Of a stretch of 64,000 nucleotides of DNA, positions 52,641 to 59,416 are shown one piece after another. How positions within the stretch are numbered: the first letter of the stretch is position 1; every line of letters starts with the position of its first letter. The stretch lies in assembly GCA_050115675.1 (NCBI GenBank), contig JASFQB010000008.1, forward strand, positions 10,854-74,853, read 5' to 3'. The DNA comes from Candidatus Woesebacteria bacterium. Its GTDB lineage: Bacteria; Patescibacteriota; Saccharimonadia; Saccharimonadales; EFPC-124. The notes under the pieces were generated by a model, which had not been told where the DNA came from, searched no databases, and saw nothing but the letters and a program-made list of their open reading frames with translations. A program made the translations under genes and the position numbers.

Positions 52641-52717
52641 GGCCCCTTCGTCTAGTGGTCCAGGACGTCAGGTTCTCATCCTGAAGATCGCGGGTTCGAC
52701 TCCCGCAGGGGTCACCA
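52641..52717 (+). tRNA. tRNA-Glu (anticodon CUC), CCA encoded
   Basis: GGCCCCTTCGTCTAGTGGTCCAGGACGTCAGGTTCTCATCCTGAAGATCGCGGGTTCGACTCCCGCAGGGGTCACCA folds as a cloverleaf with anticodon loop TTCTCAT. Confidence 0.9.
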
Positions 52718-52732
52718 TGACATTACAAAACC

Positions 52733-52762
52733 AAAACCCCACAAAATATGTTGTGGGGTTTT
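52733..52762 (+). terminator. Rho-independent terminator after tRNA-Glu
   Basis: AAAACCCCACAA (52733-52744) pairs with TTGTGGGGTTTT (52751-52762). Confidence 0.75.
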
Positions 52763-52841
52763 GCAGCTAAATTCATCATACTAATTTCGCTCAGACTTCA
52801 TTAAAATAAAGTCTTCACTAAATTATATAAAGAGATAATAA

Positions 52842-52870
52842 TTGACAAGAGCAATATTACTTGTTAAAAT
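52842..52870 (+). promoter_or_regulatory. Consensus sigma70-like promoter for the HisRS pair
   Basis: TTGACA (52842-52847), 17-nt spacer, TAAAAT (52865-52870). Confidence 0.55.
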
Positions 52871-52912
52871 TTATTTGACCACAGTCTAACTAATCGATGA
52901 GGAGTATGAAGG

Positions 52913-54220
52913 ATGGTTAACACGAGAGCAATGACCGGCTTCATGGAATTGACGCCGGGCCAACAGCTCGAGTTTGACAGGATTAGAAGAGTTATCGAGC
53001 AGGAATATGTGCGTTTTGGCTTTACGCCAATCGACACTCCCGGCATCGAACGCTCCGAGGTCCTACTAGCAAAAGCTGGCGGTGAAACGGAAAAACAGAT
53101 TTACCGTTTCACTAAAGGTGGCGACGACGTTTCTTTGCGTTTCGATCTTACGGTACCTCTGGCGAGGTATGTCGCCGAGCACTACAGCGAACTCGTATTC
53201 CCGTTCCGAAGGTCGCACATCGCCAAAGTATATCGCGGCGAGCGCCCTCAAAAGGGTCGCTATCGCGAATTCTACCAATGTGATATTGACGTAATCGGCG
53301 AGTGCACTCTCGGAATCGCCTATGACGCTGAGATTCCCAGAGTAATCTACTCCACCTTCTCCCGTCTTGATTTCGGTAAGTTCACCATAAAGGTTAACAA
53401 CCGAATGATCTTGTCCGGTTTAATGTCGCACCTTAATGCAGAATCGATTTCTACTGACGTCCTTAGGGTCGTCGATAAGATCGAAAAAATTAGTCACGAG
53501 GAGTTCATCTCCGAGCTCAAAGCTCTTGGCCTGAGCGAATCTCAAGTTAACGACGTCGTTCGATTCATCCGCATTAAGGATGACCCGGACTCAACAATTG
53601 ATCAGTTACGAGCCATGGGCGTCGAGGATGATAAGTTCGAACAGGGCGTGAATGATCTGGAAACAGTCGTTCGCCTGATGCGCACCATGGGCATTCCTGA
53701 CAGCCACTTTGCGATCGACTTGTCGATTGCTCGTGGCCTTGATTACTACACCGGTACAATTTACGAGACAACCCTCGACAACCACTCGCGCATTGGCTCC
53801 ATTTGCTCTGGCGGACGTTACGACAACCTCGCTTCATGTTATACAGACAGAAGGCTTCCAGGTGTCGGAATCTCCATCGGTCTCACTCGGCTCTTTAGCC
53901 AGCTGCTTGAGCTCGACATCGTCGGGAGCAATAAAAAAACAGTTGCAGATGTCCTCGTTATTCCTTTGACGGATAGCGAGGTTCAGTCTGCGCTAACTCT
54001 TGCTAACCAACTACGCTCAAGCGGCAACAATGTTGACGTGCTGCTCACGTCTGCGCAAGTCAAAAGGAAGTTTAGGTATGCTGATAGAATCGGCGTGCCG
54101 AATGTAATTGTTGTTGGCGCCGATGAAGTTGCAAGCCAGTTGTTCACTCTTCAAAATATGAGCACTGGCAACAAGCTCTCGCTTACTGTTAACGAGATTT
54201 CCGAACGACTCACCAGCTAA
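52913..54220 (+). CDS. hisS: Histidine--tRNA ligase (class II, canonical motifs)
   Basis: YRGERPQKGRYREFYQCDIDVIG, GGRYDNL, and a C-terminal anticodon-binding-like domain (VLVIPLTD...VDVLL...KRKFRYADRIGVPNVIVVG). GAGGAG SD. Confidence 0.85.
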   Translation: MVNTRAMTGFMELTPGQQLEFDRIRRVIEQEYVRFGFTPIDTPGIERSEVLLAKAGGETEKQIYRFTKGGDDVSLRFDLTVPLARYVAEHYSELVFPFRRSHIAKVYRGERPQKGRYREFYQCDIDVIGECTLGIAYDAEIPRVIYSTFSRLDFGKFTIKVNNRMILSGLMSHLNAESISTDVLRVVDKIEKISHEEFISELKALGLSESQVNDVVRFIRIKDDPDSTIDQLRAMGVEDDKFEQGVNDLETVVRLMRTMGIPDSHFAIDLSIARGLDYYTGTIYETTLDNHSRIGSICSGGRYDNLASCYTDRRLPGVGISIGLTRLFSQLLELDIVGSNKKTVADVLVIPLTDSEVQSALTLANQLRSSGNNVDVLLTSAQVKRKFRYADRIGVPNVIVVGADEVASQLFTLQNMSTGNKLSLTVNEISERLTS

Positions 54221-54234
54221 GGAGCGTGGTCGGC

Positions 54235-55524
54235 ATGACCAATCGTCATCATGCTAGTCATATACCGGCTGGCACTAGCGAAGTGTTTGGTGTTGAGATG
54301 CTGCGACTTCAGGACGTCATCGACACTATCAGGGGGACATATGAAGCTTTCGGCTTCGACCCCTTGCACACGCCAATCCTTGAGCACGCCGAGGTGTTCA
54401 ACGGACATCACGGAGAGGGTGAGAAGCTACTATTTAAATTCTCCGACTCTAGCGGCACACAACTGGTGAACCGCTACGATCTCACTGTTCCGCTTGCTCG
54501 ATTTGCAGGCACGCACCCTGAAACCCCACGTCCACTAAAGCGCTATCAAATTGCTTCAGTATTCCGTGACGACAAGCCAGATCTTGGACATTCTCGCGAA
54601 TTCACTCAATGTGACGGTGATGTCGTAGGAAATTCGTGCTTGTCGACCGATGCCGAAGTAATTTGCGTGGCATATACCGGGCTAACACGCCTAGGCTTTT
54701 CAGCATTCAGAATTCGAGTCAACCATCGCGGAATCATCAAAGCAATTGCAGAGAAAGCGGGCATTAAAGATGCCAATGGAATAGTCATGATCCAAAGAGC
54801 GCTCGACTTCTCCGATAAAATTACAAAATCGGGATTGTCCGGAGTCGAGGCTGACCTTTCCGACCATGGAGTTCCGCAAGAGGCTATCGACGCAATAATG
54901 GAGATGGTCACGCTTGATGGCAACGGGCCGCTTGATAAGCTCGATAAAATCCAGCGATCACTCAGTTTTTCTGAAATCGGAAGAGCTGCCACGGATGAGC
55001 TCGACACCATCCTCAGGATGTTGCCGCCCACTGTTCTTGAAAAAGTAACTGTCGACCTTACGCTGGCGCGCGGAGCCGACTATTACACTGGATTTATTCT
55101 TGAAGGTGTAATTGAGTCAATTCCAGTTGGCGCCGTTCTCGGTGGCGGGCGCTATGACAACCTAATTGGCAAATTTGGCAACAAGCCAGAACCTGCCGTT
55201 GGCATGGCGTTTGGTCTCGAACGAATAGTCACCGCAATGAAACTCTCGGGTATATTCGACAGCACCAGGCTTCAACAGAGAGTCCTTGTTGTCGCAAATC
55301 CAGAGATGGATGAAGGGCGAATAATCAGTATCGTCAACCGATTGCGAATCGCCGGAGTCTCGGTCGACTACTTGCCTCACGGCATTAACAGCAATCCTCT
55401 TGGCTATGCTCAGCATCGTGGCTTCTGCGCTGTCATTGAGCTTTCCGACAACTGTCACACCGCTACAGCAGTATTTGAAGCGGGCGAAGAGCTTCTTTCG
55501 AGAATTCTACCCTACCTCAGCTAG
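54235..55524 (+). CDS. HisRS-like paralog with degenerate catalytic motifs (HisZ-like or novel function)
   Basis: Collinear with HisRS (DLTVPLARF, GGGRYDNLIGKFG). The ERPQxGRYREF block reads FRDDKPDLGHSREFTQCDGDVVG, and the C-terminal domain is degenerate. AAGGAG overlaps the hisS stop, with ATG at 54235. Confidence 0.7.
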   Translation: MTNRHHASHIPAGTSEVFGVEMLRLQDVIDTIRGTYEAFGFDPLHTPILEHAEVFNGHHGEGEKLLFKFSDSSGTQLVNRYDLTVPLARFAGTHPETPRPLKRYQIASVFRDDKPDLGHSREFTQCDGDVVGNSCLSTDAEVICVAYTGLTRLGFSAFRIRVNHRGIIKAIAEKAGIKDANGIVMIQRALDFSDKITKSGLSGVEADLSDHGVPQEAIDAIMEMVTLDGNGPLDKLDKIQRSLSFSEIGRAATDELDTILRMLPPTVLEKVTVDLTLARGADYYTGFILEGVIESIPVGAVLGGGRYDNLIGKFGNKPEPAVGMAFGLERIVTAMKLSGIFDSTRLQQRVLVVANPEMDEGRIISIVNRLRIAGVSVDYLPHGINSNPLGYAQHRGFCAVIELSDNCHTATAVFEAGEELLSRILPYLS

Positions 55525-55565
55525 TTGTCGGCGCGTGCAAGAAATAGTTAGTGGTTAATCAACGT

Positions 55566-55597
55566 CCATGTTCCCCTTTGCAAATCGGGGAACATGG
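55566..55597 (+). terminator. Hairpin terminator after the HisRS pair
   Basis: CCATGTTCCCC (55566-55576) pairs with GGGGAACATGG (55587-55597). Confidence 0.65.
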
Positions 55598-55770
55598 CCA
55601 CACACTTTACTCAATCAATCAGTCGTGATAATATCAATTTAATGTTTTTAACACTTTTCAACCATCATACAAACGCCCTCTAAAGGAGGTTTGTTTGCCG
55701 GTTGAATAAACTGCATATAGTGGCCTCCTTATGGAAGCTATTTTTTTATTGTGCAAAAAGAAAGGTCAAC

Positions 55771-56766
55771 ATGATTCCAGAGAAATTAAAGCCAGGCGAT
55801 GAAGTGAGGATAGTTTCGTTTGCCAAATCCGCGTCCAGCATAGATAAAAATGTGCTAAATAAATCGATTGCCGTGCTCGAAGGCATGGGCTTAAAAGTTA
55901 CTTTTTCTGCGAATGCTTTTTCGCAAAAGCAAAGAGGCTGCCCAACCGACCAAGAAAAGATTTTTGACTTGCACAAGGCTTTTAAAGATAAAAACGTCAA
56001 ATGCATTTTGGCGGCAATTGGCGGTTTTAACTCAAACCAACTCCTTAGCCTTATTGATTGGGATTTGCTGCGCGCCAATCCAAAAATTATGGCAGGCTTT
56101 TCGGATATTACGGTTATAAGCCACGCAATTTTAGCCAAAACCGGCATGATTTGTTACGCTGCGCCAAATCTTTATTGTTTTGGCCTGCCGCCTGAATCGA
56201 GTTATTCTGTAGAATATTTTAAAAAATGTCTGTTTACCAACCTTAGCGCCGACTACCAAATTAAAAATTCAAATGTTTTTTACGATTACCCCTGGGATTA
56301 TGACGATAAATCCAACAGAACGCCAAATCAGAATATTGGCATTCAAGTTTTGCAGCCCGGCCAGGCCGCCACTGGCACGATAATTGGCGGCAACATGTGC
56401 AGCCTTAATTTGCTCAATGGCACTGAATATTTTCCAAAAATTGATGGCGATATAATTTTATGCATCGAGGACGACAGCTATGATTCAATTCCAGAAACCT
56501 TTGAGCGGAATTTTCAGTCAATTATTCAGCAGCCGTATTTTAAACAGGTCAAGGCAATTCTTATCGGCAGGTTTCAAAAAGAATCTTGCACCACTGAGCA
56601 GGCGCTAACAGATATAATTATGTCTAAAAATATTCACAGCAGCATTGCCGTGGCGTATAATTTTGACTTTGGCCACACTGATCCAAAATTTACATATCCA
56701 ATTGGCGGCAAGATGTCTGTTGATTTAAATGCGGATCAGCCGCAAATTAGAATTATAAAGTATTAG
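55771..56766 (+). CDS. S66-family serine peptidase (LD-carboxypeptidase / MccF-like)
   Basis: N-terminus KPGDEVRIVSFA, nucleophile motif AGFSDITV, C-terminal FDFGHTDP histidine motif. I prefer the ATG at 55771 over the upstream TTG at 55702. Confidence 0.8.
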   Translation: MIPEKLKPGDEVRIVSFAKSASSIDKNVLNKSIAVLEGMGLKVTFSANAFSQKQRGCPTDQEKIFDLHKAFKDKNVKCILAAIGGFNSNQLLSLIDWDLLRANPKIMAGFSDITVISHAILAKTGMICYAAPNLYCFGLPPESSYSVEYFKKCLFTNLSADYQIKNSNVFYDYPWDYDDKSNRTPNQNIGIQVLQPGQAATGTIIGGNMCSLNLLNGTEYFPKIDGDIILCIEDDSYDSIPETFERNFQSIIQQPYFKQVKAILIGRFQKESCTTEQALTDIIMSKNIHSSIAVAYNFDFGHTDPKFTYPIGGKMSVDLNADQPQIRIIKY

Positions 56767-56772
56767 CGTTTG

Positions 56773-57072
56773 TCAAAAAACAGCCGATACACCCAGTGCT
56801 TTTAGCTGTGGTTCGAGATATTCCAACTCACCGAAGATGGTTTCGACCTGTTTCGTGCTGGGGGTCACCAAAGAATGATTTTCAAAACCCTTGAGCCTAA
56901 AAAGCTCGTTCACCCCTGTCATTTGGCAGGGGTTTTGGGTTCCACTGGCGATTTCTGCGTAGGTTGGCAGACTGTTAAAGATTAGGCCAGAATACTCAGC
57001 TTTGGCTACTGGATTACTCTGGTGGAGGAGTAATTCTTTTGGTGTTCCATCAGGTATTTTATGTGTGTATGT
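56773..57072 (-). pseudogene. Start-less open frame (99 codons), probable frameshifted tail of the adjacent recombinase remnant
   Basis: Manual translation on the minus strand is stop-to-stop: TYTHKIPDGTPKELLLHQSNPVAKAEYSGLIFNSLPTYAEIASGTQNPCQMTGVNELFRLKGFENHSLVTPSTKQVETIFGELEYLEPQLKALGVSAVF. There is no start codon or RBS, and the frame differs from ORF 57059-57742. Confidence 0.4.
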
Positions 57073-57742
57073 CTAGCGGCCGGGATTCAGCTGCCTCTTG
57101 TTTTTGCTTTTCCATGGCGGCTATTTCTGTGTCGATTTTCACTAGCTCGTCCTCCATACATTTAATTGCTATCTCTGTAGTGAGTATTTTAATTTTATTA
57201 GCGATGGCGCTGGCCTGTGTGCGCAGTGACGCGATACGTTCATCGTGATTAACAAGCTTTCCTTGTTCTTCAGTTTGGCGGCGATCCCACTCGGCTACCA
57301 CAGCTTCCATAACGGTATTTATATATTCTGGCGTTAGCTGGAAGTTTTTAACAAATTCCTGCACCGTATTCTCCATTTTTTCTTTAGATATGCGGAAGTA
57401 ATGACCTTGTTTGCTGCAATGGTAAGCTGAATAATATTTGCCCAATTTGCTGCGATCAAGCCTGACGGGCATATAGTCCGCCACCTGTTTTATTTGGATA
57501 GCTTGATTGTAGGTGAAAATTGCCTGCATAAAAAACATAACTTTGCGTTTTGGAACGCGCATTGTAAACCGTACGCCGTCTGCGCAGGTAGAGACAATCT
57601 CCGGCGCAAAAATAATGGGACTAGGCAGCAGTTTTGCTGGCATTTTTCTACTTGCAAACAAACCGTATAAATTAACAAACAATTCCTGCGTGGCTTCTGG
57701 CGAGCGGCTAATTTGCGCTGGCGGCGTCAGCTCCAGCACCAC
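57059..57742 (-). pseudogene. Chimeric gene remnant: N-terminal fragment of a CPR-type secretion/HerA-VirB4-like ATPase fused to the zinc-ribbon/coiled-coil C-terminal part of a large serine recombinase
   Basis: aa 1-90 (VLELTPPAQISRSPEATQELFVNLYGL...IIFAPEIVSTCADGVRFTMRVP...) resemble the N-termini of CPR DUF87/HerA-type ATPases, from memory. aa ~95-227 (YYSAYHCSKQGHYFRISKEKMENTVQEF... then a heptad-rich segment) resemble the post-catalytic region of a recombinase. No catalytic serine domain is present. Confidence 0.4.
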
Positions 57743-57748
57743 ATAACC

Positions 57749-57886
57749 CTAGCCAAACAAACGCCGCAACCCCAAAAACTTCATCAGTAGCCACGCCACC
57801 AGAAAAATAGATGCAATCGCTCCTAGTAAAAAGCAAGTCCACGGTAAAATTTGCTCTAAACCATTCAGCCAATCGCCAGTGGACAT
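57749..57886 (-). CDS. 45-aa single-pass membrane peptide
   Basis: ATG at 57886 with AGAGGGGGG SD. MSTGDWLNGLEQILPWTCFLLGAIASIFLVAWLLMKFLGLRRLFG. It ends 7 nt before the next ORF. Confidence 0.4.
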   Translation of the reverse strand: MSTGDWLNGLEQILPWTCFLLGAIASIFLVAWLLMKFLGLRRLFG

Positions 57887-57959
57887 AACCCCCCTCTTTG
57901 CCCACCGGTTAAGTGTGTTTAGTTTCATGGTAGCGGGTTTGGAGTGGTTGAGCAAGGCA

Positions 57960-57987
57960 TTGTAATTTCTTGATAATATGCTATAAT
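57960..57987 (+). promoter_or_regulatory. Candidate AT-rich promoter upstream of the high-GC gene
   Basis: TTGTAA (57960-57965), 16-nt spacer, TATAAT (57982-57987), about 125 nt before the ATG at 58116. Confidence 0.4.
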
Positions 57988-58115
57988 GTAAACTGTCTTC
58001 GGCGTTGTCACTATGGTGAGGTTTAGAAAATACGTTTACCTCGGCTTGTGACTGCGCCAACAAGATGCTCAGCTAGTGCTCTGGACTGCAGTACTCGTAC
58101 ATCGGAGGGATCGCA

Positions 58116-59345
58116 ATGGGTACACTACGTAAAGAGCTGCCGGTCATCCGCATGGGTGAAATTCTGACCATGGCGCCTGAGAGCGACGTACTCAACGGTG
58201 ACGTGATCGCCCGGCTGGGAACAGCCTGGTCCGAGATTCCCGCTGCCGATATTGCCCAGCAGGGCGTGTTCGGTCTTGCTCGTAATCTCATGGTCGTACT
58301 CCCAGACAACGGTGGGTTCAGCAATGCGCTGCGCCTTAGGGTTGCTGAGGAGTTGGTGGCCTTGTTGAAGAGGTTCAACGTCGAGGAGTCGGTGCCACAG
58401 CAGACCGTGACAACCGTTCGGGTCGAACGAAACTTCAGTGAGATGTCGCTCCGACAACTACTGGAAACGATCGTGATCGACCCGTCCTTGTACCGCGAGG
58501 CGCTCCGCCACATCAAGGCTCACCCAGAGCTGCGGAACGCGGCGCGCAAGACCTACAAGTGGGTCGTCCCGGTCAACTCGGACGGCACTGGCATCGACGT
58601 TGACGCTACCATGCAGTACGTGCTGGAGCTTGACAAGCCCCACGCCGTACCGCAGCGGAGGGTGACCGGTCATCGCCGACCGGTCTGGCTCGGACGCGCC
58701 ATGGGCGCGAACGACCTGCCGCTGGTGCACGTCATCACCGGAAGACTGACACAGGGGCCAGACGAGAACGGGTTCGACTGGTCGACCCGACCCAAGGAGC
58801 TTCTCGAAGCGATCCTCTGGGCCAGGAAGACCAGACACTCCCAGCTACCCGACCTCCAGTCGGACGTCTACGGGTGGAGCGAGCAGCTCTTCTGTGATCC
58901 GCTGCCAAGGCGCTTCCAAGACATCCTGGGCGATTACCTGGACGCCAAGGAGTCGCGGGTCAGCACGACCGACGGCATCCGTGCCGACTGGCCGGAGGAC
59001 CTGCCGTTCGACAGCGCGTTCACGTTCGTCGTCACGGTCAAGGCCGCGGCGGTCGACTACGAGGCGCTGGTGTGCGAAGCTGCCAATCTGGTGGCTCCGC
59101 TCCACGCCTCGGGCATGGGTACTTCGGTACGCGGCGGCGTCTACTCGACCATCAAGGTCTCTGGCATGAACGCCTACATCGACGGCGTGATCGTCATCAA
59201 CGGCGGCCAGGTCAGCGGAATGAGCGTGTCCGGTACGGTATACATGCCGCCCGGCAGGAGTCTCCGCGTCAGTGGGATGAACGCAAACGTCCGGGTCATC
59301 AACCAGACCTGGAGGCAGCTCGCCGAACGGCTCGGTCTGGTCTGA
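58116..59345 (+). CDS. 409-aa protein of unknown family encoded in a >60% GC island; C-terminal V-S-G-M repeat region
   Basis: This is the only frame spanning the whole island. GGAGGG (58104-58109) lies 6 nt before the ATG. Codon third positions show strong G/C bias. The C-terminus carries repeats: KVSGMNAYIDG..QVSGMSVSG..RVSGMNANVRV. Confidence 0.7.
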   Translation: MGTLRKELPVIRMGEILTMAPESDVLNGDVIARLGTAWSEIPAADIAQQGVFGLARNLMVVLPDNGGFSNALRLRVAEELVALLKRFNVEESVPQQTVTTVRVERNFSEMSLRQLLETIVIDPSLYREALRHIKAHPELRNAARKTYKWVVPVNSDGTGIDVDATMQYVLELDKPHAVPQRRVTGHRRPVWLGRAMGANDLPLVHVITGRLTQGPDENGFDWSTRPKELLEAILWARKTRHSQLPDLQSDVYGWSEQLFCDPLPRRFQDILGDYLDAKESRVSTTDGIRADWPEDLPFDSAFTFVVTVKAAAVDYEALVCEAANLVAPLHASGMGTSVRGGVYSTIKVSGMNAYIDGVIVINGGQVSGMSVSGTVYMPPGRSLRVSGMNANVRVINQTWRQLAERLGLV

Positions 59346-59416
59346 CCAGGCCATTCAACCACAAATGCGACTAGCTTAATCTAAGCTGGTCGAAGTCCGA
59401 AAATTCTTTCGGGCCA

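Follow-up and report, generated by a model that had tools for sequence, protein, structure and literature searches.

Two reviews of aminoacyl-tRNA synthetase (aaRS) paralogs, one of them PMC9437257, name only HisZ as a paralog of histidyl-tRNA synthetase (HisRS). HisZ derives from the HisRS catalytic domain, binds histidine, is not a tRNA ligase, has lost the adenylation activity (PMC9437257), and works with the short-form ATP phosphoribosyltransferase HisG-S. Other parent synthetases have given rise to EpmA/PoxA (LysRS-like), AsnA (AspRS-like) and the amino acid:carrier-protein ligases (SerRS-like), in which the class II adenylation site is intact, anticodon reading is lost or relaxed, and the activated amino acid is passed to a non-tRNA acceptor (PMC9437257 and general knowledge). 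Here, a 64-kb stretch of a Candidatus Woesebacteria contig (JASFQB010000008.1; the whole stretch is referred to as the window) was found to carry a HisRS gene (g1) followed by a gene for a HisRS paralog (g2) and by a gene for a serine hydrolase of family S66. Judging from sequence, g2 represents an undescribed HisRS-paralog family within a mobile module that is predicted to respond to histidine starvation. Like HisZ, g2 appears to be paralogous to the HisRS catalytic domain and to bind histidine without acting as a tRNA ligase, and it has a link to the histidine economy. Unlike HisZ, it keeps the adenylation residues, falls below the HisZ model and lies nearer to active HisRS, and his genes are absent at all but one of the loci searched. 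With EpmA/PoxA, AsnA and the carrier-protein ligases g2 appears to share the intact adenylation site and the lost or relaxed anticodon reading, whereas transfer to a non-tRNA acceptor is only proposed for g2, which also keeps a full-length C-terminal domain and has a hydrolase, not an acceptor protein, as its partner.

The two genes are + strand open reading frames (ORFs) arranged head to tail downstream of tRNA-Glu(CTC):

52913..54220, + strand: g1, canonical histidyl-tRNA synthetase (hisS) of the housekeeping type, 435 aa (TIGR00442, PF13393, PF03129)
54219..54224, + strand: AAGGAG, the Shine-Dalgarno (SD) sequence for g2, which overlaps the stop codon of g1 (TAA, 54218-54220)
54235..55524, + strand: g2, member of the HisRS-paralog family (GHHGEGE, FRDD..D.GH[F/Y]REF with S120 in the window, RGADYY; diverged anticodon-binding-like C-terminus)

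Bioinformatics analysis revealed that g1 is a bona fide HisRS, the working enzyme of the cell. It scores 374.5 bits on the TIGR00442 hisS model (cut-off, 286.75), contains both the catalytic (PF13393) and the HGTP anticodon-binding (PF03129) domains, and is 100% identical to P0121, 'histidine--tRNA ligase [Ca. Woesebacteria]'. A 54% relative is located in relA-dtd-hisS-aspS, with no g2 there. In Southlakia epibionticum, a HisRS of 435 aa with the same domain architecture is essential (PMC10633639 supplement); this cultured Saccharibacterium has no g2 beside hisS or beside its S66 gene. A second HisRS-like gene of Southlakia, SEML1_0496 (PMC10633639 supplement), is non-essential and encodes 390 aa with weak PF13393 and PF03129 matches.

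For g2, two start codons come into question, ATG 54235 (10 nt past the SD sequence) and GTG 54226 (1 nt past it). The former is probably the true start because of the SD spacing, and because both the NCBI entry for this protein (MGD8374429.1, 'HisS family protein') and a 96% relative (P0001) are 429 aa long. Only PF13393 was detected in g2, without a PF03129 match. The protein scores 270.6 bits on TIGR00442, 16 bits short of the cut-off, and 197.8 bits on the TIGR00443 hisZ model (cut-off, 271.65), on which g1 itself reaches 181.5. The motif FRDD-xx-D/N-x-GH[F/Y]REF-x-QCDGD, together with RGADYY, is common to 120/120 nearest relatives (43–96% identity); its counterpart in the HisRS of the g1 family is YRGE-RPQK-GR[Y/F]REFYQCDID. 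Signature-bearing representatives make up about 18–20 clusters at 50% identity among 1.84 billion, after which the scores fall to ordinary HisRS with R121 and RGLDYY. Thus, by sequence criteria, g2 belongs to a small, sharply bounded, distinct and conserved HisRS-paralog family. Its database names are inconsistent (HisRS, 'HisS family protein', HisZ), and one member, P0084, is called 'ATP phosphoribosyltransferase regulatory subunit' by NCBI. Another g2-like protein, P0032, has a Peptidase_S66C match, which reflects either a natural fusion of g2 with S66 or a frameshift in the assembly.

Residues were numbered according to E. coli HisRS, the sequence of which was used as a ruler only, and 187 HisRS served as the canonical comparison set. 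In a 48-member alignment of the g2 family, the motif-2 Arg, the motif-3 Arg, the Asp/Thr histidine pocket and Gln128/Asp132 are invariant, and the HisA Arg and both Tyr are kept in at least 90% of the members; the residues for adenylation and for the histidine pocket are thus in place. The sharpest switches are R121 to H (100% versus 100%), Q118 to D (95% of the family), L261 to A, and K to H in the GHHGEGE loop, which is new in g2; the canonical RGLDYY reads RGADYY. The motif-2 loop has a charge of −1.6 (−4 to 0) in g2 versus +2.8 (+1 to +3) in the canonical enzymes, the ranges being without overlap, and the basic loop with R121 and Q118 is missing from g2. In E. coli HisRS, this loop with R121 and Q118 makes contacts to the ATP gamma-phosphate and the acceptor end. 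Going by the invariant and conserved residues, histidine and ATP should still be bound by g2, and the formation of histidyl-adenylate is very probable.

The C-terminal domain of g2 lacks the conserved basic patch of the anticodon-binding domain and evolves under little constraint. Among the 13 loci with both genes, the catalytic cores are equally conserved (identity 63.3% for g2, 63.6% for g1), whereas the C-terminal domains share 18.4% identity in g2 versus 32.4% in g1 (p 2e-14). The AF2 model of g2 (pLDDT 89.7) shows a complete HisRS fold, and its best structural matches are active HisRS, with HisZ at rank 42. For the reading of tRNA-His, canonical HisRS employs a basic motif-2 loop and an anticodon-binding domain under constraint; g2 appears to have neither, and we infer that it acts independently of tRNA. 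The idea of a decayed pseudo-enzyme was rejected, as the conservation of the core equals that of the essential partner. The preliminary description of this stretch had correctly quoted the motifs of both genes and had taken those of g2 as catalytically degenerate, adding that catalytic residues retained on proper alignment would speak against this. Such residues were found, and the motif-2 block is an alternative motif under strong purifying selection, so that the 'degenerate' reading is largely refuted. Its remark on a degenerate C-terminal domain holds in that this domain fails the Pfam anticodon-binding model, and does not hold in that its remote homology to that domain is genuine (hhalign probability 98%, E 7e-14).

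A g1-type hisS adjoins g2 in about 14/19 lineages, often with a gap of a few nt or an overlap of up to ~35 nt, and gaps or overlaps from −35 to +65 nt recur at the junctions of relatives; translational coupling of the two genes is plausible on this layout. In at least five lineages, g2 has no adjacent hisS and still lies next to a hydrolase or exporter gene. The divergences of g1 and g2 are correlated (Mantel r 0.80, p 2e-4), yet the two proteins of the window are only 31% identical, which suggests that they are old paralogs travelling together; a recent tandem duplication was rejected as the origin of the pair on account of the same low identity. The distribution of the g2 family is patchy: contigs that carry it are labelled Saccharibacteria, Woesebacteria, 'Doudnabacteria', Babeliales, gut Alphaproteobacteria, Muribaculaceae, Lutibacter, Enterocloster and Bacilli, and it is also present in two cultured Firmicutes, the isolates Paenibacillus wynnii and Anaeromicropila populeti. 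Auxotrophy is general among the host lineages. In a metagenome scan, 3/80 loci held true family members, the rest being ordinary HisRS.

No his-biosynthesis genes were found in the window or in 24/25 other g2 loci searched. At the remaining locus, L092, the pair sits after a his operon with a short-form HisG of 206 aa, accompanied by a YerC/YecD-family gene, and in this genome g2 may have a HisZ-like role. A true hutH is also found beside g2, an amino-acid-exporter-like EamA gene in both isolates, and a MarR gene with an ABC exporter near some modules. Canonical tRNA-His genes adjoin three g2 loci; an unusual tRNA-His as the substrate of g2 was rejected, because all three have the canonical G-1:C73. 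In L093 (10313-12050), genes for a RimL-type GNAT (Acetyltransf_3) and a HIT-family protein follow just after g1; both families include enzymes acting on aminoacyl-nucleotides. A 35-aa ORF upstream of g2 at the same locus yielded nothing informative. In L111 (1-4393), two g2 copies flank the M42 gene, a 149-aa ORF and g1. The Fur gene beside g2 in L016 was set aside as a housekeeping Fur, probably there by coincidence.

The gene downstream of g2 in the window encodes a serine hydrolase with the S66 fold and a Ser-His-acid triad, in which GFSDIT, FGHT and IEDD residues are found. Compared with the PDB entries, it is closest to Lmo1638 and BA_5613 (E 1e-75/1e-72), followed by MccF (1e-33 to 1e-37) and LdcA (1e-11 to 1e-20), and on the LdcA equivalog it reaches 108 bits versus a cut-off of 378. 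No functional description of Lmo1638 and BA_5613, the closest solved homologs, was present in the searched literature. The fold of the hydrolase beside g2 changes with the g2 subclade:

S66 hydrolase: window, L001, L004, L007-9, L092, L099, L105
M42 aminopeptidase: L091, L093, L095, L097, L111
metallo-beta-lactamase (MBL) fold: L010, L012, L087
S33 prolyl-aminopeptidase-like: L014, L015, L018

Such partnership with hydrolases of unrelated folds suggests a shared small molecule and argues against a protein complex.

The spacer between g2 and the S66 gene holds a predicted attenuator with a histidine-rich leader. The elements identified in the window are as follows:

55566..55597, + strand: 11-bp hairpin directly 3' of the g2 stop codon, which may end the operon or stabilise the RNA (a hairpin is at the same place in all aligned spacers)
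55606..55634, + strand: promoter P2, TTTACT, 14-nt gap, extended -10 TGATAATAT
55642..55683, + strand: leader ORF MFLTLFNHHTNAL, 13 codons with tandem His codons at 55663-55668, beginning 7 nt past the -10 box, leaderless
55677..55747, + strand: attenuator switch, A:B antiterminator versus B:C terminator with U7 (constrained folding)
55771..56766, + strand: MccF-like-clade serine hydrolase of family S66, distinct from LdcA (PF02016, PF17676), predicted to be controlled by the His attenuator

In the antiterminator, segment A (AAAGGAGG, 55682-55689) pairs with segment B (GGCCUCCUU, 55722-55730); in the terminator, B pairs with C (GGAAGCU, 55733-55739), followed by U7 (55741-55747). The two structures are mutually exclusive, and in silico the choice between them depends on ribosome position. 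With the ribosome stalled on the His codons, the constrained fold forms A:B (−24.9 kcal/mol) and no hairpin at the U-run; when it is placed at the stop codon instead, B:C forms a hairpin immediately next to the U-run. The spacer as a whole has a folding z of −3.3 versus shuffles. A clean switch was also obtained for L099, and for L001 with the stall at the last His codon; for L095, other pairing in the stalled fold takes up the 5' arm of the terminator hairpin, and L008 and L009 are ambiguous in simple minimum-free-energy folds.

When the g2-S66 spacers of six divergent trios were aligned, four elements were found in register: the hairpin after g2, the extended -10 box, a mini-ORF that starts 6-10 nt further on, and hairpins that exclude each other and end in a U-run just before the S66 ribosome-binding site. 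Differences in the 55566-55597 hairpin between the window and L105 are compensatory or stem-extending, and the extended -10 (TGnTATAAT-like) is kept in register in L001, L099, L007, L008 and L009. The clustered-codon leader ORF has positional counterparts among the relatives (MTKLFSQRHHHLHV, MTRLFLQHHHHSHD, MNSILEINFHLNHHHC.., MSLSTFCCYYYHCHCHYFRF and MNQFCVYAHHHHRPHPGDDS), and the leader peptides are distributed as follows:

window and L105: MFLTLFNHHTNAL
L099 and L007: MTKLFSQRHHHLHV
L008: MTRLFLQHHHHSHD
L009: MNSILEINFHLNHHHCKG..
L001: MSLSTFCCYYYHCHCHYFRF
L004: MNQFCVYAHHHHRPHPGDDS

M42 genes (L091, L095) and MBL genes (L010, L087) likewise have this device upstream. Among the intergenic His-cluster mini-ORFs (446 kb, both strands), 10/13 sit 68-114 nt upstream of a module hydrolase and 0 upstream of g1 or g2, the chance of such a mini-ORF being 0.05-2% per spacer. 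The S66-type leader ORFs start 6-10 nt past the -10 box (55626-55644 in the window; also L001, L007, L008, L009 and L099), so their mRNAs would be leaderless; leaders of the MBL type (L010, L087) carry an SD sequence. A known regulatory RNA in the spacers (T-box, riboswitch) was rejected, as there were no Rfam matches, either in the window spacer at E up to 1 or in the relatives at gathering thresholds.

According to the literature, His leaders have been predicted in bacilli upstream of hisZ and of a hisS paralog, and the leaders of that survey came from Proteobacteria, Actinobacteria and bacilli (PMC2965389). The module leader resembles these and enterobacterial hisL in combining a short ORF of His codons with alternative terminator and antiterminator hairpins that would sense the charging of tRNA-His. 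It differs in its predicted control of hydrolase genes (S66, M42, MBL) instead of biosynthetic or synthetase genes, in where it is found (contigs assigned to Patescibacteria, contigs labelled Bacteroidota, and gut-metagenome contigs), in being leaderless when of the S66 type, and in matching no Rfam model. No report of a His leader controlling peptidase genes, or of one in Patescibacteria, was found in the literature.

Comparison with L105 by blastn revealed that g1, g2 and the S66 gene belong to a 4092-bp segment of 97.6% identity (window 52712-56802), whereas other regions common to both contigs are 72–78% identical. Its parts and the preceding tRNA gene are:

52712..56802, no strand assigned: cassette of hairpin, promoter, g1, g2, attenuator and S66, recently exchanged between genomes (blastn versus L105)
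52641..52717, + strand: tRNA-Glu(CTC) (ARAGORN; Rfam tRNA 63.1 bits)
52732..52763: GC-rich palindrome that lies between tRNA and promoter and forms a terminator-like hairpin (inverted repeat I2 with arms of 16 nt, 94% complementary)
52842..52870, + strand: promoter P1, TTGACA-17-TAAAAT with an extended -10 TG (11/12 matches), predicted to drive g1-g2

The final 6 nt of tRNA-Glu(CTC) overlap the left edge of the cassette (52712), and the right edge lies 36 nt past S66, so this gene is included despite its native-like GC. The upstream segment that contains P1 shows 1 difference across 201 nt versus L105, and the genes upstream of the cassette differ between the two contigs. The pair is compositionally foreign to the window: the codons CTC (0.27/0.03), TTC (0.61/0.10) and ATC (0.45/0.15) are in excess in g1 and g2 relative to the rest, and GC3 is 0.56 and 0.50 versus 0.33-0.45 (chi-square p 9e-14). 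Between the window and L105 copies, pN/pS is 0.25 for g1, 0.57 for g2 and 0.20 for S66. On this evidence, the promoter-g1-g2-S66 cassette is mobile and was recently exchanged. Neither terminal repeats nor an integrase were found at its ends.

As to the details of the flanks, in L105 (1-2304) the cassette is preceded by MC6/MC8 and DUF2326 genes, and in the window by a kinase/regulator pair and the tRNA. The position of the left edge within the 3' end of tRNA-Glu(CTC) (52712-52717) resembles tRNA-targeted integration, for which no integrase or flanking direct repeat was found. Codon 120 of g2 (54592-54594) carries a single TTT to TCT change, giving GH-S-REF in the window, where L105 and 92% of the family have Phe. 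Plasmid carriage of g2 was rejected, since tblastn yields only ordinary hisS of at most 34% identity. Just downstream of the cassette, two − strand ORFs of 227 and 104 aa (57059-58063) have no family match; a strong AT-skew dip lies at 57000-57300, and the region may be a mobile-element remnant. Further on, a 1.3-kb patch of 60-65% GC (58050-59400) interrupts the window of ~42% GC. It includes an ORF at 58116-59345 with GC3 0.80 and has no Pfam or PHROG match on either strand, and its segment 59211-59341 is 75% similar to an L105 segment adjoining an rve integrase gene.

In the preliminary description, two full-length HisRS-fold genes downstream of tRNA-Glu, the SD sequence of g2 overlapping the g1 stop codon, a TTGACA-17-TAAAAT promoter and atypical codon usage had been pointed out, and ORF calling, profiles and codon counts bear all of this out. 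It had also noted that no histidine pathway is visible, and doubted an ordinary HisZ and universal vertical inheritance of the pair; the profile scores, with g1 above the hisS cut-off and g2 below both hisS and hisZ cut-offs, the neighbourhoods, and the patchy, exchanged cassette agree with it. The locus had been seen as a unit of two genes. That pair is real, while the S66 hydrolase and the attenuator, which provide the strongest functional clues, had been missed. Thus, the observations are confirmed and the interpretation is partly supported.

Taken together, the locus may be a mobile three-part histidine module, in which g2 adenylates histidine for a non-tRNA acceptor and a starvation-induced hydrolase reclaims the histidine. 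We prefer this reading tentatively, with a confidence that stays well below even. The g2 protein, made together with HisRS, would transfer activated histidine to the acceptor, probably a cationic one, yielding a hydrolysable conjugate, His-X. With plentiful His-tRNA-His, the ribosome would complete the 13-codon leader and mask segment A, and the terminator would form. With scarce His-tRNA-His, it would stall on the His codons, the antiterminator would form, and the hydrolase would be made. Under histidine starvation, the induced enzyme would then cleave His-X, and free histidine would return to HisRS. A hydrolase made when charged tRNA-His is scarce should either supply histidine or remove a block on charging.

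Several points weigh against such a conjugate cycle. No acceptor X of g2 was identified and, to our knowledge, none of the known bacterial histidyl conjugates fits. The coupling of g2 to hisS, at times with an overlap of ~35 nt, suggests a 1:1 stoichiometry, which fits a g1:g2 heteromer equally, and for a presumed auxotroph, a ligase that consumes histidine and is equimolar with HisRS would seem expensive. The attenuator does not govern g2; the window leader has only two His codons, and modules of the S33 and EamA types have no leader, nor do M42 loci L093, L097 and L111, MBL locus L012 and S66 locus L092. The R121H switch might impair adenylation, and the window g2 shows the elevated pN/pS versus L105 together with the private F120S change. 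Finally, the hydrolases could merely free histidine from ordinary peptides, which would not account for g2.

The coupling or overlap of g1 and g2 in many lineages and their correlated divergences are in favour of g2 being a partner subunit of HisRS that does not bind tRNA, either in a g1:g2 heterodimer or as a histidine/ATP sensor tuning HisRS, with the hydrolase linked via a shared histidine regulon only. Motif 1 and the class II core are kept, and the acidic loop and the relaxed constraint on the C-terminal domain would be consistent with a subunit that has given up tRNA handling. A similar arrangement is SLIMP-SerRS2 of insect mitochondria, in which a synthetase paralog with lost canonical function pairs with the active enzyme; that pair is eukaryotic, and for g1 and g2 a heteromer is only proposed. 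The subunit role is rather unlikely, given the lineages in which g2 stands without hisS and still beside a hydrolase or exporter, and an invariant adenylation set within a core as conserved as that of an essential enzyme, which exceeds the need of a pure scaffold. Alternatively, the trio might be an inducible defence against an inhibitor of HisRS that mimics histidyl-adenylate: the His leader would sense low charging and induce an MccF-type hydrolase to cleave the aminoacyl-nucleotide, and g2 would be an insensitive enzyme or a high-affinity decoy. Immunity to aminoacyl-nucleotide toxins uses S66/S51 peptidases, GNAT, HIT and extra aaRS copies (PMC8323819; bioRxiv S51 paper), with MccF, MccG, MccE2, MccH and auxiliary aaRS as precedents. 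As in the systems with MccF and auxiliary synthetases (AbmK, AgnB2), an MccF-clade hydrolase adjoins synthetase-family genes on a mobile unit of patchy distribution, the adenylate pocket of g2 is intact, and exporters (EamA, MarR with ABC), the RimL-type GNAT and the HIT gene are near some modules. Unlike those systems, the module has no biosynthetic cluster or toxin nearby, its target would be HisRS, and its relatives swap in M42, MBL and S33 enzymes, of which the M42 and S33 aminopeptidases are not known as immunity enzymes. A natural HisRS-directed Trojan-horse compound is absent from the review, in which neither 'HisRS' nor 'histidyl' occurs (PMC8323819). Since, in addition, g2 is not inducible and is without the tRNA-reading features that a resistant synthetase would need, and the hutH and his-operon neighbours suit metabolism better, defence is considered unlikely.

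It is improbable that g2 is a second, divergent HisRS isozyme still charging tRNA-His, even though it has the full-length HisRS fold, misses the hisS cut-off narrowly, has tRNA-His genes next to three modules, and belongs to a class of enzymes in which duplications are common (PMC9437257). At the position of R121, which never varies in canonical HisRS, g2 has His throughout, and at that of Q118 it has Asp; its loop charge has the opposite sign, almost nothing restrains the evolution of its anticodon-binding-like domain, and the signature is constant across phyla with canonical G-1:C73 tRNA-His. Least of all is g2 expected to be HisZ, the regulatory subunit of the short-form ATP phosphoribosyltransferase; we regard this as very improbable. 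The his operon with short-form HisG before the L092 pair and the NCBI name of P0084 are the points in its favour, and L092 is the caveat to rejecting an ordinary HisZ. On the other side stand the hisZ score far under the cut-off and nearly equalled by g1, the lack of his genes at the other loci, the general auxotrophy of the host lineages, and the structural matches, which favour HisRS; moreover, HisZ is without adenylation activity (PMC9437257), and g2 keeps every adenylation residue.

With respect to its significance, the g2 family would be the second HisRS paralog, and one with an intact active site. Its inconsistent names distort the metabolic reconstructions of Patescibacteria and of gut and oral metagenome-assembled genomes. 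The His-leader attenuator provides a direct regulatory read-out by which histidine starvation would be linked to hydrolases of three unrelated families. Human-associated Saccharibacteria carry the module in abundance, with 171 blocks of the assembly collection indexing a single g1 variant, and its presence in the two cultured Firmicutes makes the hypothesis directly testable. If the defence reading is true, an undiscovered natural inhibitor of HisRS is predicted. It is possible, although rather doubtful, that the g2 family is a previously unrecognised tRNA-independent class of histidine-activating enzymes which, with starvation-induced hydrolases, makes and reclaims a histidyl conjugate, and would thereby constitute a mobile histidine reserve or carrier cycle among auxotrophic, host-associated bacteria.

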